Source: a virus (Duplodnaviria > Caudoviricetes). Taken from it: DNA of 64,000 nt. The DNA lies in the IMG/VR virus record IMGVR_UViG_3300021963_000022, one strand, 5' to 3'. Below are positions 9,565 to 52,512 of the stretch, in pieces. The translations under genes were made by a program, and so were the position numbers. The notes beneath the pieces were generated by a model. It made no database searches. It had not been told where the DNA came from and saw nothing but the letters and a program-made list of their open reading frames with translations. Numbering within the stretch: position 1 is the stretch's first letter; the number at the start of each line of letters is the position of its first letter.

Positions 9565-9948
9565 ATGAGAGCTAAAGAATTTATTAACGAGGGTCGTACT
9601 GGCTCTATACAGGATGATGTAGCTAGAGCACTGCCCTCCACATATGCCATTCCTGAGTTAAAAGGTCAAGATCCATATATTCAATATAGATTTGGTGTAG
9701 CAATTGCAGGCGCTAAAGGTTCTAAGAAACGTGCGGAAGACGGTGTACCTAATTTTAGCAAAGAAAGTGCTTGGGGACAAAATCAAATTGTTGTAAGTTT
9801 TGACCCTTCTATTGATGAATGGTTGACCGATGCATTAAAAATCATGGGCATCAAAGGTAAGAAAAGATTAAGTACCATACACAGCGAAGAAGCTGATGAT
9901 GTGTCTACAAAAAGCCCTGTACAGGGGTTTAAAGGGTTTAAAAAATGA
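9565..9948 (+). CDS. putative internal head protein (CTS-like N-terminus), tandem copy A
   Basis: Starts MRAKEFINE, ends SPVQGFKGFKK. Confidence 0.7.
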   Translation: MRAKEFINEGRTGSIQDDVARALPSTYAIPELKGQDPYIQYRFGVAIAGAKGSKKRAEDGVPNFSKESAWGQNQIVVSFDPSIDEWLTDALKIMGIKGKKRLSTIHSEEADDVSTKSPVQGFKGFKK

Positions 9949-10313
9949 GGGCTTCCGAATTTATATTCGAAAATAGTAAGGGTAAAATATCTAAACGTCA
10001 ACAAGAGTCTTCACGTGGACTAAACATATTTGCCGATAATCAATTTGATAGAACATATGATTTGAATCGTGTAATGATGGCAGTTGCCTGTAGTGATGGC
10101 ATCAATCCTATTGATATGAACTCTGAAAGCTGGTTTGGTAAAAATAATACAGCACATCCTTATACCAAAGAAGAACAAGATATGCTAAAATTAGCATACA
10201 AAGCTGCCGGTATAACTTATAAAGATTTAAATAAGGCTGATCTAAGAAGTAAAGAACTAGACAGTACATACAAAACAAGCCCAATAATTGGGTTTAAAGG
10301 CTTTAAAAAATAA
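9945..10313 (+). CDS. putative internal head protein (CTS-like N-terminus), tandem copy B
   Basis: Starts MRASEFIFE, ends SPIIGFKGFKK. Confidence 0.7.
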   Translation: MRASEFIFENSKGKISKRQQESSRGLNIFADNQFDRTYDLNRVMMAVACSDGINPIDMNSESWFGKNNTAHPYTKEEQDMLKLAYKAAGITYKDLNKADLRSKELDSTYKTSPIIGFKGFKK

Positions 10314-19545: not shown

Positions 19546-20385
19546 ATGTCTACAACATCTTGTCCTTCAATAACAGGGTACGGTGCATCAGGTATATCTG
19601 CAGGTACAAATTCTCTAGGTAACATTAACTTGAGTAGTTTAAACAGCACTATCAATTTGTCATCCGCTCAAATTTCTGGCATACAAGCAGATGATTTATT
19701 TACCTTTGATTATAGAATTAATCCTAATGTAAAAAAATATGAAATTTACGAATTTACAGAAGATGTACTAGCATTGAGTGTAACTTGGAATAGAATGCGG
19801 GCAAATAGTGTTAGTACTGTAACTAAACTTACTGATAATGAATTGTTTAGAAACATAACCGCAGACGACAGAACATTAGCAGATACTATTGCTAACTACT
19901 ACAGCAAAAAAATTATGATGATGAAACTAGTAAACACCAGGTTTACTAGTTATAGAACAGACCTTAATGAGTTTGTTCACGGTGATCGTAAAAAAATTGT
20001 AGATAAGATGTTTGGATTGGCTTATTACTTGCCATCATTCTATGACTATGATGTAAAACTTGATGCGGTTAAATCAGAACTTGTACTTAAACAAGAATGG
20101 TCTACAAATAATAAGATGAACGGTAAACAGCAGTCAATAGTTCTTACGCCATTAAGACGTTTACGTAGGAAAACTAAATCATTGGATGCATATCATTATT
20201 GGTTAAAAACTACAAACGGAACCGGAGTATTGATTGCGTTGCAACCTAACAACACTTTATTGAAGCTTTGGGAGCATTTTTTCAATAAAAATGAGCAAAT
20301 TGTAATCTCAGGAACAACTTTTTGTAAGACTTTAGACGGATTTGAATACTTGAGTATTAAAAATTGGGAAATAGTACACGGTTGA
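19546..20385 (+). CDS. hypothetical protein
   Basis: 279-aa ORF with a Ser-rich N-terminus; its stop overlaps the next -35 box. Confidence 0.7.
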   Translation: MSTTSCPSITGYGASGISAGTNSLGNINLSSLNSTINLSSAQISGIQADDLFTFDYRINPNVKKYEIYEFTEDVLALSVTWNRMRANSVSTVTKLTDNELFRNITADDRTLADTIANYYSKKIMMMKLVNTRFTSYRTDLNEFVHGDRKKIVDKMFGLAYYLPSFYDYDVKLDAVKSELVLKQEWSTNNKMNGKQQSIVLTPLRRLRRKTKSLDAYHYWLKTTNGTGVLIALQPNNTLLKLWEHFFNKNEQIVISGTTFCKTLDGFEYLSIKNWEIVHG

Positions 20386-20420
20386 CAATAAATGGGTCCC
20401 GTGATACAATACTTGTATTG
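20382..20420 (+). promoter_or_regulatory. promoter cassette copy 1
   Basis: TTGACAATAAATGGGTCCCGTGATACAATACTTGTATTG (TTGACA, 17 nt, TACAAT). Confidence 0.85.
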
Positions 20421-20442
20421 AAACTGATAAAGAGGACTACAA

Positions 20443-20820
20443 ATGACTACAGAATTCAAATCTTGGGAAGAGTTGACTCAGTTGGAACAAGCCCAATCTA
20501 TATATTGGGATATGTATAAGGACGCTTATGGTGTTCGTCCTCGTGGTGTTGATACTTCGGGTTGGACTCTGGCAGATTTTGATGCAGAATTTGAAGGACT
20601 CCGTGTGGCTATTGAAGCCGAAGACAAGGCCCGTAAAGAGGCAGAGTCTACTGCAACTGTTGTTTTTGAGCAACGGATTCAATCATTGATTGATGCTGGT
20701 GCTAATGACCGTGCTACTGCCATGCGCTGGATCCACGAAGCTGAGGACACTCAGGGTGATGATGAGTACTTGTGCTATACATTGGGCTTGCCCTATCAGT
20801 ATTTTCGTAAGGTAGCATAA
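20443..20820 (+). CDS. phage hypothetical protein (YKDAYGVRPR motif)
   Basis: SD AGAGGA, own promoter, helical 125 aa. Confidence 0.75.
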   Translation: MTTEFKSWEELTQLEQAQSIYWDMYKDAYGVRPRGVDTSGWTLADFDAEFEGLRVAIEAEDKARKEAESTATVVFEQRIQSLIDAGANDRATAMRWIHEAEDTQGDDEYLCYTLGLPYQYFRKVA

Positions 20821-20821
20821 T

Positions 20822-20860
20822 TTGACAATAAATGGGCATTGTGCTACAATACTTGTATAG
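20822..20860 (+). promoter_or_regulatory. promoter cassette copy 2
   Basis: TTGACAATAAATGGGCATTGTGCTACAATACTTGTATAG (TTGACA, 17 nt, TACAAT). Confidence 0.85.
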
Positions 20861-20879
20861 ATTGATTAAAGGAGCTTAT

Positions 20880-21227
20880 ATGTCTTATTTCAACGTTGAT
20901 GAAGATTCACGCACTAGCACAACTGCTTGGTACGCCCGGCAAGATTGTGAACAGTACAATAGTGATCACAAGCATTTATATACTAAAGATCAAATTTTAT
21001 CAGGTGAATTATTGAAAAAAGCGGCTGAAACTGCATACTTTCGTAGTCGTGTGTTTTTGAATTTCCGTGAAAAATTTATGACTGTCAAAGTTGAGGCACC
21101 GCAACTTGCTGATAAAATTAGTAATGAAGTAGAACAGTTACTAATTCATGCAGGAAAGACTGGTGTATATGTTAAACACGGTAAAGCTAGTATAATTTTT
21201 GAATTCGCACATCGTAAAATTTGCTAA
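20880..21227 (+). CDS. hypothetical protein (start refined to ATG 20880)
   Basis: SD AAGGAG before ATG 20880; the longer track ORF runs through the promoter. Confidence 0.7.
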   Translation: MSYFNVDEDSRTSTTAWYARQDCEQYNSDHKHLYTKDQILSGELLKKAAETAYFRSRVFLNFREKFMTVKVEAPQLADKISNEVEQLLIHAGKTGVYVKHGKASIIFEFAHRKIC

Positions 21228-21259
21228 TAAATGGCATTCGTGCTATAATACTTGTATTG
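21221..21259 (+). promoter_or_regulatory. promoter cassette copy 3
   Basis: TTGCTAATAAATGGCATTCGTGCTATAATACTTGTATTG (TTGCTA, 17 nt, TATAAT). Confidence 0.8.
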
Positions 21260-21283
21260 ATTGATTAACACACAGGAGAAGCT

Positions 21284-49966: not shown

Positions 49967-50728
49967 ATGGCAGGTGCTACATTAGACCAATTAAAAGAAG
50001 ACTTATTTAGAAATTTACGACTACGTTTAGGTGACGGAATAGTTGACCTTGAGATTGGGCCCGAACACTTTGAATCAGCATATAGATATGCTATTAGTAT
50101 CTATCGTCAAAGGGCACAGAATTCTACTGAAGAATCTTATACATTGTTGACGTTAGAAAAGAATGTAGATGTTTACACTTTGCCTAGCGAATTCATTAAC
50201 GTAAGACAGTTATTTCGTAGAAGTATCGGGATGGAGACTGGTCCTGGTGCATCAGCATTTGATCCATTCTCAAGTGCTATTTTGAACACATACTTGCTTA
50301 ACTATAATTATGCAGGTGGTCTAGCTACATATGACATGTATGCAGGATATGTTGAACTAGCCGCACGTATGTTCGGTGGATATGTAATATTCACATTTAA
50401 TCCAGTAACTAAAGAATTACGTATTGTACGTGATGTAAAAGGTAGCGGAGAGCATGTATTGATTTGGGCAGACATTCAGAAGCCTGAAGCAGTATTGCTA
50501 CAGGATCCGGGTGCAGGTGTTTGGATTAGCGACTGGATCTTAGCTATCCTTAAGGGCATCATCGGTGAAGCACGTGAGAAGTTTGCTAGCATTGCAGGAC
50601 CAGGTGGCGGTACAAGTTTGAACGGTGCAGCCATGAAAGCAGAATCCAAAGAGATGCAAGCACAGTTACTAGAAGACTTAAAGCGTTATGTAGATTATAG
50701 TCAACCATTGACTTGGGTACAAGGTTAA
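49967..50728 (+). CDS. neck protein (T4 gp13-like)
   Basis: LRLRLGDG..YRQRAQNSTEESY..GIIGEAREKFASIAGPGGGTSLNG; late box at 49942. Confidence 0.8.
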   Translation: MAGATLDQLKEDLFRNLRLRLGDGIVDLEIGPEHFESAYRYAISIYRQRAQNSTEESYTLLTLEKNVDVYTLPSEFINVRQLFRRSIGMETGPGASAFDPFSSAILNTYLLNYNYAGGLATYDMYAGYVELAARMFGGYVIFTFNPVTKELRIVRDVKGSGEHVLIWADIQKPEAVLLQDPGAGVWISDWILAILKGIIGEAREKFASIAGPGGGTSLNGAAMKAESKEMQAQLLEDLKRYVDYSQPLTWVQG

Positions 50729-51373
50729 ATGAGAGCTATTGAATTTTTACAAGAGAGCTTAACTCCGCCTAATAAGTTTTTATCTAAAGCAGAAAAATTA
50801 AAAGCCGGCAATAAAGTTTTCTATAAAGGCAAATTAGTAGGTATTGCCACCGGTGAAATTAATGGTGATAGAGTTATTTTTAAACCTTTTGCATCTTACG
50901 GTAACTCTGGCAATTTTGCTAGTTTACCTATTGACCAAATAAGCTTACGAGAAGGTAAACATGTTCAAGGTGTGGCGGAAGGCTTCCCTCAACCGGGACC
51001 AAGTTCAGGTGCTCCACAACAGTTTGGCTCCGATGCTAAAATACAAACTCGCCAAATGACTGTAAAAGATATTATATCATCTATACCCGGTGTGCCTTAT
51101 TACAATAATGTAGTCGATGATTGGGACGCCAAAGATTATAGTTGGAATACTACAGAAAAGGTTATAGAGTATGCTACTTACTTAAAGGATCATCCAGAAA
51201 GTTTAGCAAAGTTGCCACCAATCATAGTATTAAACGGTAAGTTTGAAGATGGTGCCCATAGGGTATCTGCCATATGGTTGCTACAACAAAGAATGGATCC
51301 TAAAAATCCATTGTGGAAAAATGCTAAATTAAATGTTCAATTTGTTAAGCAAGGTATGGCGGAAGATAATTAA
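50729..51373 (+). CDS. CTS-like leader + small beta-barrel-like module + ParB/Srx-like domain
   Basis: MRAIEFLQE start; LPPIIVLNGKFEDGAHRVSA (DGxHR); QGVAE and QGMAE linkers. Confidence 0.7.
   Translation: MRAIEFLQESLTPPNKFLSKAEKLKAGNKVFYKGKLVGIATGEINGDRVIFKPFASYGNSGNFASLPIDQISLREGKHVQGVAEGFPQPGPSSGAPQQFGSDAKIQTRQMTVKDIISSIPGVPYYNNVVDDWDAKDYSWNTTEKVIEYATYLKDHPESLAKLPPIIVLNGKFEDGAHRVSAIWLLQQRMDPKNPLWKNAKLNVQFVKQGMAEDN
50966..51365 (+). repeat. 16-bp direct repeat (15/16 identical) flanking the ParB module, 384 bp apart
   Basis: CAAGGTGTGGCGGAAG at 50966-50981 and CAAGGTATGGCGGAAG at 51350-51365. Confidence 0.85.
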
Positions 51374-51382
51374 CCTAAACAG

Positions 51383-51411
51383 TTTACTTTACAACTCTCC
51401 TGTAGTACAAT
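51383..51411 (+). promoter_or_regulatory. sigma70-type promoter
   Basis: TTTACT, 17 nt, TACAAT; SD AGGAG before ATG 51433. Confidence 0.55.
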
Positions 51412-51432
51412 ATGTATTACAGGAGTTACCAT

Positions 51433-52065
51433 ATGATTATTGGAGTTACAGGATTAATTGGGTCAGGCAAAGATACGATTGCTGACTATCTTTGCACATT
51501 TCACGGGTTCAAACGTGTTAGTTTTGCGGCCTCATTGAAAGACGCAGTAGCCGCAGTATTTGGTTGGAATAGAGATTTACTAGAGGGTTCAACTAAGTCT
51601 AGTAGAGAATGGCGTGAAAAACGTGATGAATGGTGGAGTAATCGTTTAGGTATGGAAATCACCCCACGGTGGGTACTACAATACTGGGGCACAGAAGTCT
51701 GTCGTAACGGTTTTCACAAAGATATCTGGGTTGCTAGTGTAGAGAACAAACTACGTCAGACAGACGAAAATATTGTTATTACTGATTGCAGATTTGCAAA
51801 TGAAGTTAATTCAATTAAAAGTGTAGGTGGTGTGACTATGAGAGTTAATCGTGGGTCACGTCCAGTATGGTATAGTGCCGCAGTTGATTACAACAATGAA
51901 TCTGAAAGTAGCGAACAATATCAAAAAGCCAAGTTAATACTAGAAGGGCACAATGTTCATGCAAGTGAGTACAGTAGTGTAGGATTGTTGTACGACTACT
52001 ATATTGACAACAACGGAAGTATTGATTCATTACACGGGCAAGTAAACTCAGTAGTCAACTTCTAA
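51433..52065 (+). CDS. deoxynucleoside monophosphate kinase (T4 gp1-like); start refined to 51433
   Basis: IIGVTGLIGSGKDT, FAASLK, TPRWVLQYWGTE and ITDCRFANE. Confidence 0.9.
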   Translation: MIIGVTGLIGSGKDTIADYLCTFHGFKRVSFAASLKDAVAAVFGWNRDLLEGSTKSSREWREKRDEWWSNRLGMEITPRWVLQYWGTEVCRNGFHKDIWVASVENKLRQTDENIVITDCRFANEVNSIKSVGGVTMRVNRGSRPVWYSAAVDYNNESESSEQYQKAKLILEGHNVHASEYSSVGLLYDYYIDNNGSIDSLHGQVNSVVNF

Positions 52066-52392
52066 GTCACCCCTACGCCAAGTAACTTCTTTACGTTTGA
52101 CAACTTCTACACAGTTAAGACAGATACTACGTAAGTTTATTAGTTCGTTATTATCTAAGTTACCGTCAATGTAGAAGACGGTAAGCTGACTAGTAAACAA
52201 TCCCTTAAAGCCGCATAAATCACATGCGGCTTTTTTCTTGTATCCTGCTTTTTGCCAGCTGGGTACTCTAGCTTTTTTCTTATTATTCTTACGACCACAC
52301 TCATCACATTTAGACCGATAGTGTATTATGTCATTACGTTTGTAATTAATAGCGCAAAAGTTCTTATTGCATTGCTTACATATAGGTCTCAT
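52048..52392 (-). CDS. zinc-binding degenerate HNH-like protein (start refined to 52392)
   Basis: CKQC, CDEC, CDLC, VFYIDGNLDNNELINLRSICLNC; minus-strand TAAATA 5 nt upstream of the start. Confidence 0.7.
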   Translation of the reverse strand: MRPICKQCNKNFCAINYKRNDIIHYRSKCDECGRKNNKKKARVPSWQKAGYKKKAACDLCGFKGLFTSQLTVFYIDGNLDNNELINLRSICLNCVEVVKRKEVTWRRGDLEVDY

Positions 52393-52512
52393 AGTGATAT
52401 TTATGATAGGAACCTTCGAAGGCACCATTTTCGGCAGTTTTTACGTCCTTCTGATAAATATTAGTACGTTAGGGCGTTAACCCTCAAAATCATAACACAA
52501 AAGGAAAACAAC

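Follow-up and report, generated by a model that had tools for sequence, protein, structure and literature searches.

Proteins that a phage injects along with its genome are its first-line weapons against the defences of the host, and how they are renewed so rapidly is an open question. In phage T4, IPI, IPII, IPIII and Alt carry, on unrelated small proteins, a leader of approximately 10 residues ending in hydrophobic-x-Glu (Mullaney and Black 1996; PMC9026906, PMC8442874). This capsid targeting sequence, MKTYQEFIAE, is removed by the prohead protease gp21, and its processing determinants are found at positions 8 and 10 (PMC8442874; PMC9026906); with Asp at P1, targeting is retained but processing is blocked (PMC9026906). 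In giant phages, proteases of the gp21 family cleave on the C-terminal side of a Glu that is preceded by a short motif (PMC5694885; PMC9026906), as seen in the ejection and inner-body proteins of phiKZ, 201phi2-1 and SPN3US, which are cut by a gp21 relative after A-x-E or S/A/G-x-E, often at several sites per protein (PMC5694885, PMC9026906). Polyvalent proteins of phages and conjugative elements are chains of unrelated conflict-type domains such as GNAT, nucleotidyltransferase, ParB-like and ART (Iyer et al. 2017, PMC5512222); in phages their late genes lie next to those of the virion, and the proteins are predicted to be delivered with the DNA (PMC5512222). In polymorphic toxins, a short motif marks the site of recombinational module exchange, as exemplified by the VENN motif of CdiA and by the Rhs junctions (Zhang et al. 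2012, PMC3482391).

We analyzed a stretch of phage DNA of 64,000 nucleotides (here called the window). Its open reading frame 50729-51373 is a late gene, small in size, from a giant T4-like water phage that is uncultured. It represents one allele of a hypervariable slot behind the adaptor gene of a T4-like jumbo phage of approximately 350 kb from lakes and estuaries. As in T4, the leader stands on unrelated small proteins, the cargo genes vary between related phages, and relatives of the present phage encode a gp21-type protease. The internal proteins of T4 lack an internal joint and undergo a single cut, whereas here the modules of putatively packaged and cleaved proteins are chained behind one leader by a joint that is fixed as DNA. 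The chaining of unrelated domains is shared with polyvalent proteins, which are recognized by at least two unrelated domains beside virion genes: the present ORF has two modules, and its relatives have GNAT, cytidylyltransferase-like, nucleotidyltransferase and ParB_N domains. In contrast with this locus, no uniform fixed-codon joint has been described for polyvalent proteins. Pfam revealed no embedded peptidase (zincin-like MPTase or assemblin-like) in the ORF or in nine relatives scanned, and release would here depend on a separate prohead protease. The sites in the phiKZ, 201phi2-1 and SPN3US proteins remove propeptides and, unlike the joints described here, are not known as points of module exchange or as conserved DNA words. 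Polymorphic toxins are secreted bacterial proteins that are accompanied by immunity genes and exchange modules at one C-terminal point, whereas the present proteins are encoded by phages, have many joints per protein and no immunity gene, and carry a joint that fits a protease motif. What is new relative to the known systems is thus a uniform in-frame joint that is fixed as DNA and also fits the protease motif. A literature search yielded no paper on this linker system, and none of the papers containing QGVAEG dealt with phages.

The sequence-only reading of the window had described the ORF as two modules, the second of them ParB/Srx-like, behind the start MRAIEFLQE, with each module followed by a linker encoded by a 16-bp direct repeat. 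Both the build of the ORF and the repeat were confirmed. The preceding gene, which encodes a head-tail adaptor, stops directly before the ATG, and the order is MRAIEFLQE, the 66-residue module 1, K-H-V-Q-G-V-A-E-G, the 122-residue module 2, Q-G-M-A-E, D-N and stop. The 16-nt words CAAGGTGTGGCGGAAG (50966-50981) and CAAGGTATGGCGGAAG (51350-51365) are identical in 15 of 16 positions, the one differing base changing Val to Met; they are spaced by 384 nt (128 codons), share one frame and specify Q80-G-V-A-E84 and Q208-G-M-A-E212, respectively. The coordinates of the features are given in Table 1.

Table 1. Features of the locus, of the remaining window and of the adaptor-kinase slot in relatives. 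Positions refer to the window unless a contig is named.
Feature	Position	Strand	Remarks
Head-tail adaptor (Ad2/gp13-like), upstream flank of slot	49967..50728	+	PHROG 211, E 1.5e-22; neighbour kept in relatives
Whole ORF: leader, module 1, linker, module 2, linker, D-N, stop (214 aa)	50729..51373	+
Leader MRAIEFLQE	50729..50755	+	resembles T4 capsid targeting sequence MKTYQEFIAE
Module 1 (aa 10-75), predicted small KOW/SH3-type beta-barrel, end ...SLRE	50756..50953	+
Linker word 1, CAAGGTGTGGCGGAAGGC (Q-G-V-A-E-G)	50966..50983	+	upstream homology breakpoint and natural swap joint
Module 2 (aa 86-207), predicted ParB/sulfiredoxin-fold cassette	50984..51349	+	E-D-G-A-H-R motif; P-Q-P-G-x-S-S-G lead-in
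Linker word 2 (Q-G-M-A-E)	51350..51364	+	GTG to ATG; downstream homology breakpoint
Tail D, N and stop codon	51365..51373	+	alternative natural allele rejoins at 51371
dNMP kinase, downstream flank of slot	51433..52065	+	PF21448, PHROG 139; neighbour kept in relatives
Two leader-bearing ORFs (MRAKEFINE, MRASEFIFE)	9565..10313	+	both end in basic GFKGFKK
Slot content, G004 (closest relative)	L045:1492-2322		276-aa HNH-type endonuclease instead of leader gene
Slot content, G001, G003, G002			unrelated small leader genes of 136, 111 and 126 aa, respectively
Slot content, L025, L028			leader-GNAT(-GNAT)-ParB/Srx alleles, V-W-E-D joints
Slot content, L053			three genes
Slot gene of L053, superoxide-dismutase-like	L053:7638-8192	-	Sod_Fe_C, E 1.8e-22; leader-like start M-R-E-F-I-T-L-L-E
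Alternative 120-codon terminal cassette, N-F-D-S-F start	L053:5837-6196, L054:7691-8050	-	same locus, behind QGVAEG or QGVTEG

The bare 16-nt repeat pair is weak by itself, and a single such pair could be due to chance. In shuffled sequence, a 15/16 pair within 600 nt is expected approximately 0.75 times per 64-kb window; the window held 24 pairs of at least 15/16 within 600 nt, most of which are other true repeats. It is thus the comparative evidence, and not the statistics of the bare repeat, that places the linker words beyond chance. That the repeat arose by accident in a plain two-domain gene belonging to no wider system has virtually no probability and is already refuted, as the word delimits module 2 in dozens of contigs and is also found at the limits of many other modules.

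A protein search with the ORF recovered 85 relatives. Residues 80-212 were 75-96% identical in more than 80 proteins of varied architecture, with sizes of 118-372 aa, and the module 2 block occupied an N-terminal, middle or C-terminal position, nearly always between (Q)G-V-A-E joints. When the window was compared by BLASTN with more than 40 related loci, 21 alignments began at 50965-50972 and 34 stopped at 51363-51368, that is, at the two linker words. This clustering of alignment starts and ends shows that the block of homology is bounded by the words, and the same bounded DNA homology was found in more than 20 other phage contigs. Forty IMG/VR loci contained the module 2 block, in open frames of up to 1470 aa with up to seven or more joints. 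Other modules flanked by QGxAE, which the sequence-only reading had proposed to look for in relatives, are therefore numerous.

The joints were remarkably uniform at the level of codons. GGT was used in 58/60, GTG in 49/53 and GCG in 54/60 cases, whereas in the same genes overall these codons account for 46%, 17% and 7% of their amino acids. After removal of duplicate contexts, the exact 12-mer GGTGTGGCGGAA was present in 58 of 84 distinct GVAE joints, compared with approximately 0.4 expected from codon frequencies, and the commonest 18-mer of the joints, with 22 occurrences, was the CAAGGTGTGGCGGAAGGC of linker word 1. Three related genomes contained 4, 1 and 6 exact copies of the 12-mer; all 11 were on the coding strand at in-frame GVAE joints, and a reversed control pattern had no copies in these genomes. 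The leader served as an internal control, its silent sites being free to vary (Ala: GCA 13, GCC 10, GCT 8; Phe: TTT 20, TTC 17). The constraint thus acts on the leader as a peptide, whereas the joint is constrained also as DNA.

A linker that slows the ribosome could also retain particular codons: GTG and GCG are rare in these genes (17% and 7%) and nearly fixed in the joint, and a pause between the modules would allow them to fold separately, exchange being a by-product. We give this explanation a slim chance. Fixation in the joints extends to the common codons GGT and GAA and to the CAA and GGC next to them, a pause does not need an identical string of 14-18 nt, and both the breakpoints and the joint of a natural allele (see below) coincide with the word. 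It is well supported that the linker DNA word is the point of in-frame module exchange between genes and between phages.

We compared silent-site divergence within module 2 with that of its surroundings. Against the closest relative (G004), the dS of module 2 was 0.28 and that of the flanking genes 1.25-1.41; against three further genomes (G001-G003), the corresponding value was 0.9-1.0 with saturated flanks. Module 2 is younger than its flanks, since its silent-site divergence is lower than that of the flanking genes. The dN/dS of approximately 0.06-0.14 indicated strong purifying selection. Module 2 was present as one copy per genome in five records, at non-syntenic places and within host proteins of 370-762 aa. 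Module 1 is also a shuffled cassette: it was found in polyproteins of 78-1167 aa behind joints such as Q-G-V-A-E-G, K-I-A-E-G or V-S-E-G, and its C-terminal end S-L-R-E is conserved among the copies. Thus, both modules of the small ORF are cassettes. The earlier proposal that the linkers are recombination sites and the domain a plug-in cassette is now supported by (i) the homology breakpoints, (ii) the fixed silent sites, (iii) the lower age of the cassette and (iv) a natural allele.

The partner found most commonly with module 2 was a C-terminal basic module that starts with G-V-A-E-N-F-A-D-G-K... and ends with ...M-Y-H-W-C-A-N-M-K-S-G-R-K-K (e.g. in P0049, P0053, L011 and L017); it matched no known family. 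Eleven IMG/VR contigs (L031-L041) begin or end within module 2. In the runs X1, X3 and X9, which come from waters where the phage is abundant, module 2 was covered by many short contigs with a summed depth 2-3 times that of the flanks. Module 2 thus acts like a repeat with many variants, at which the assembly of metagenomes breaks off.

As proposed in the earlier reading, the alleles between the gp13-like adaptor and the kinase were compared among relatives, and the content of the slot was found to vary (Table 1). Contigs of four public runs were also compared with the locus. Contigs from an estuary (X3) and from a lake (X9) matched the window up to 50983, continued with 375 other letters and returned to the window at 51371. 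Position 50983 completes the Gly codon that follows V-A-E, and 51371 is the stop codon. The X9 contig comprised 2633 nt and had three differences from the window in 924 nt upstream. The 375 nt consist of 360 nt of the alternative cassette, 3 nt of stop codon and a 12-nt spacer. An RNA-library contig of the X3 sample ran from 50792 to 50983 and on into N-F-D-S-F-K-F-G-K-P, which is no proof of transcription. The results showed that near-identical wild phage genomes carry either the ParB/Srx cassette or the N-F-D-S-F cassette, joined at word 1.

The proposal that recombination from word to word would add or remove the domain was borne out in part. Exchange at word 1 was observed, whereas the deletion form was absent: none of the contigs in the four runs skipped the 384 nt between the words, and the sole joint at the locus was a replacement. 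The natural swap used word 1 and the stop-codon region, not word 2.

The N-F-D-S-F cassette had no Pfam match. A protein language model matched it to the ART-PolyVal ADP-ribosyltransferase (score 0.94, 189 shared features), which we take as a lead only. ADP-ribosyltransferase is also the activity of T4 Alt, so that this lead, if correct, would add a likeness to the T4 internal proteins.

The two adjacent leader paralogues elsewhere in the window (9565-10313) contain near-identical DNA at 9925 and 10290, and a homologue of the second of them (MRASEFIFE) fills the adaptor-kinase slot in G002 (L048:1414-1794). A small HNH gene is located just past the dNMP kinase (52048-52428, minus strand). Homing endonucleases beside the slot could be a source of the DNA breaks that drive cassette exchange.

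In the AF2 model of the whole protein, pLDDT was below 50 at residues 1-18 and at 77-93, which include joint 1, and approximately 90 at residues 100-208. Module 1 was modelled as a small beta-barrel with strands in aa 29-74 (pLDDT about 70-78); its best fold match was the KOW domain of Spt5 (Z 6.2), KOW/SH3/Tudor barrels being a common fold. Module 2 folded alone gave a pLDDT of 88. When this model was compared with 48,161 chains by VIA-align, the top nine all belonged to the ParB/Srx superfamily, including Srx (Z 5.2, rmsd 3.5, 77 aligned) and SerK (Z 4.7), followed by Atu1540, PadC, SbnI, KorB, pNOB8 ParB and Osa, and unrelated chains scored Z 3.2 or less. Foldseek gave Srx, ParB or Noc throughout its top 20 (best E 0.014), and the names of the matching AFDB clusters were mostly ParB/Sulfiredoxin. 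At the level of sequence, neither the ORF nor the two modules had a match in Pfam (E up to 10), in PHROGs or by tblastn against 50,697 phage records, and a profile search of PDB sequences gave chance matches only. For module 2, the models without a match included PF02195 ParB_N and the DdrB-like ParB of polyvalent proteins.

The ParB/sulfiredoxin superfamily (sulfiredoxin, the free serine kinase SerK/SbnI, PadC, KorB, Osa) thus resembles module 2 in predicted fold, and both have D-G-x-H-R where the helix that follows strands 2-3 begins. In module 2 this motif, D174-G-A-H-R178 including the Arg, was invariant in 38 aligned homologues. Unlike the superfamily, module 2 has an additional invariant acidic D-D-W-D patch and the P-Q-P-G-x-S-S-G lead-in, and it does not match the ParB_N HMM. 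A ParB/sulfiredoxin fold is therefore supported weakly but consistently by the models; the scores are weak, and it is their consistency that counts. The ParB/Srx-like label of the sequence-only reading holds at the level of the fold, with the weak scores given above, and is matched by no sequence model. Module 2 is probably a nucleotide-binding or nucleotide-hydrolysing enzyme. The lead-in P-Q-P-G-x-S-S-G-A-P-x-Q-F (50984-51040, aa 86-104) was invariant in 38 homologues, yet predicted to be disordered; its role may be that of a binding peptide or of a nucleotide-phosphate loop. A 2A-like ribosome skipping at A-E-G-F-P-Q-P-G-P was considered and rejected: the stretch is found with module 2 only, other joints are without it, and the mechanism is eukaryotic.

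The mechanism that we propose concerns a large family of late proteins. These combine unrelated small modules with a leader of 9 residues, M-R-A-x-E-F-[IL]-x-E, and with a standard joint, Q-G-V-A-E-G, encoded by a fixed DNA word of 14-18 nt at which modules are swapped in frame. The leader would act as the T4 capsid targeting sequence does, loading the protein into the prohead. A gp21-type prohead protease would then cut after the Glu of the leader (L-Q-E/S, the slash marking the bond) and of each joint (V-A-E/G), and the freed modules would be injected together with the DNA. A single sequence would in this way provide both recombination microhomology and a maturation site.

The start M-[RK]-A-x-E-F-[IL]-x-E was found in 43 distinct ORFs of the loci fetched, compared with approximately 0.03 expected by chance, and most of the relatives bearing module 2 started with M-R-A-x-E-F-[IV]-x-E. 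MRAIEFLQE is comparable with MKTYQEFIAE in its approximately 10 residues, its hydrophobic positions and its terminal hydrophobic-x-Glu. Some GVAE polyproteins had no clear leader. It is conceivable, with slight probability in our view, that these are cytoplasmic proteins, in which the leader is a translation, stability or localization signal of late enzymes that work inside the infected cell and have their modules cut or left whole there. A single-copy module 2 that is near-universal in the clade and has a dN/dS of about 0.06-0.14 would fit a housekeeping enzyme as well as an injected one. Against a cytoplasmic role, the leader agrees with the T4 targeting sequence in length, in its E-F-[IL]-x-E core and in its terminal Glu, the ORF is directly coupled to the adaptor gene, and the relatives have the T4 head-maturation gene set.

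Peptidase_S77 (gp21 type) was detected above the cut-off in 3/3 related genomes, beside the scaffold and gp23-type capsid genes; the protease gene of one relative is at L042:1444-2082. Searches with the relatives' proteases (tblastn and phmmer) found no prohead protease within the 64-kb window, so the protease claim rests on the relatives. The capsid protein of the relatives has L-A-E/S (L-M-E/N in one) approximately 25 residues before a conserved V-G-V-Q-P-M segment, presumably the place at which T4 gp23 is cut. Among 81 distinct joints before module 2, P1 was Glu in 72 and P3 hydrophobic in 73, and these include joints with altered DNA words, e.g. R-V-W-E. That hydrophobic-x-Glu is kept where the DNA word differs argues for a role at the protein level beyond DNA microhomology. 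The location of joint 1 within the segment of pLDDT below 50 points to its accessibility. Counting against cleavage, the gp21 motif is very loose, so that hydrophobic-x-Glu is easy to find. Cutting at joint 2 would serve little, since only D-N follow; joint 2, whose Val codon is already changed, looks like a recombination scar.

These proteins might instead be intact multidomain enzymes, in which QGVAEG is a shuffling joint and flexible tether; proteolysis would then not take place, and perhaps packaging would not either. The direct evidence all bears on the exchange of DNA, and terminal joints followed by 2-7 residues (DN here; GKK, SKK and GKRRDGK in relatives) fit scars rather than cut sites. 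We nevertheless regard a joint that serves shuffling only as unlikely: P1 Glu and P3 hydrophobic persist in changed words (V-W-E-D, I-M-N-E), which microhomology alone fails to explain, and the leader is constrained as a peptide, is T4-like and ends in hydrophobic-x-Glu, in genes that sit among structural genes. Cleavage at the linkers, packaging into the capsid, injection and an anti-defence role are plausible hypotheses that draw on the T4-like leader, on the hydrophobic-x-Glu kept at joints and on the gp21-type proteases of three relatives. The explanation that we favour as a whole, a variable cargo slot with module exchange at a DNA word, a leader that would direct packaging and joints that would be cleaved, is in our judgement probable, if by a modest measure. 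A stronger version is tentative and falls somewhat short of even confidence: the system may be a natural 'standard-part' assembly for injected proteins, in which one word of 14-18 nt would be both joint and cut site and alternative effectors, a ParB/Srx enzyme or an ART-like module, would occupy one slot within populations of a single phage.

The locus contributes three new features: a variable slot between adaptor and kinase, a swap at the joint in wild genomes, and the cassette nature of both modules of the small gene. It offers a concrete mechanism for the renewal of cargo, in which whole modules are exchanged at a fixed in-frame DNA joint, in agreement with the wild swap. Should a protease also cut at the joint, a single short sequence would couple evolvability (shuffling) to maturation (release), a coupling that has not been described for the T4 internal proteins or for polyvalent proteins. 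The grammar of leader and joint would also make it simple to recognize capsid cargo among jumbo phages that are uncultured, and could guide the design of foreign proteins to be loaded into phage heads.

Three observations concern possible regulatory sequences in the window. The T4 late-promoter word TATAAATA was not enriched in the window (3 found, 10 expected), and none was located ahead of ORF 50729-51373. A perfect 13-bp hairpin (51397-51425; -19.9 kcal/mol, z -3.7) lies between the stop codon of the ORF and the start of the dNMP kinase, and its 3' arm includes GGAG, the would-be ribosome-binding site of the kinase; the hairpin may be a gate on kinase translation or the end of the cargo transcript. 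Finally, the 16-nt motif GTGCTACAATACTTGT and a neighbouring motif were repeated at a spacing of 399-440 nt between short genes at 20381-21260, and these repeats may represent a phage promoter or another regulatory word.
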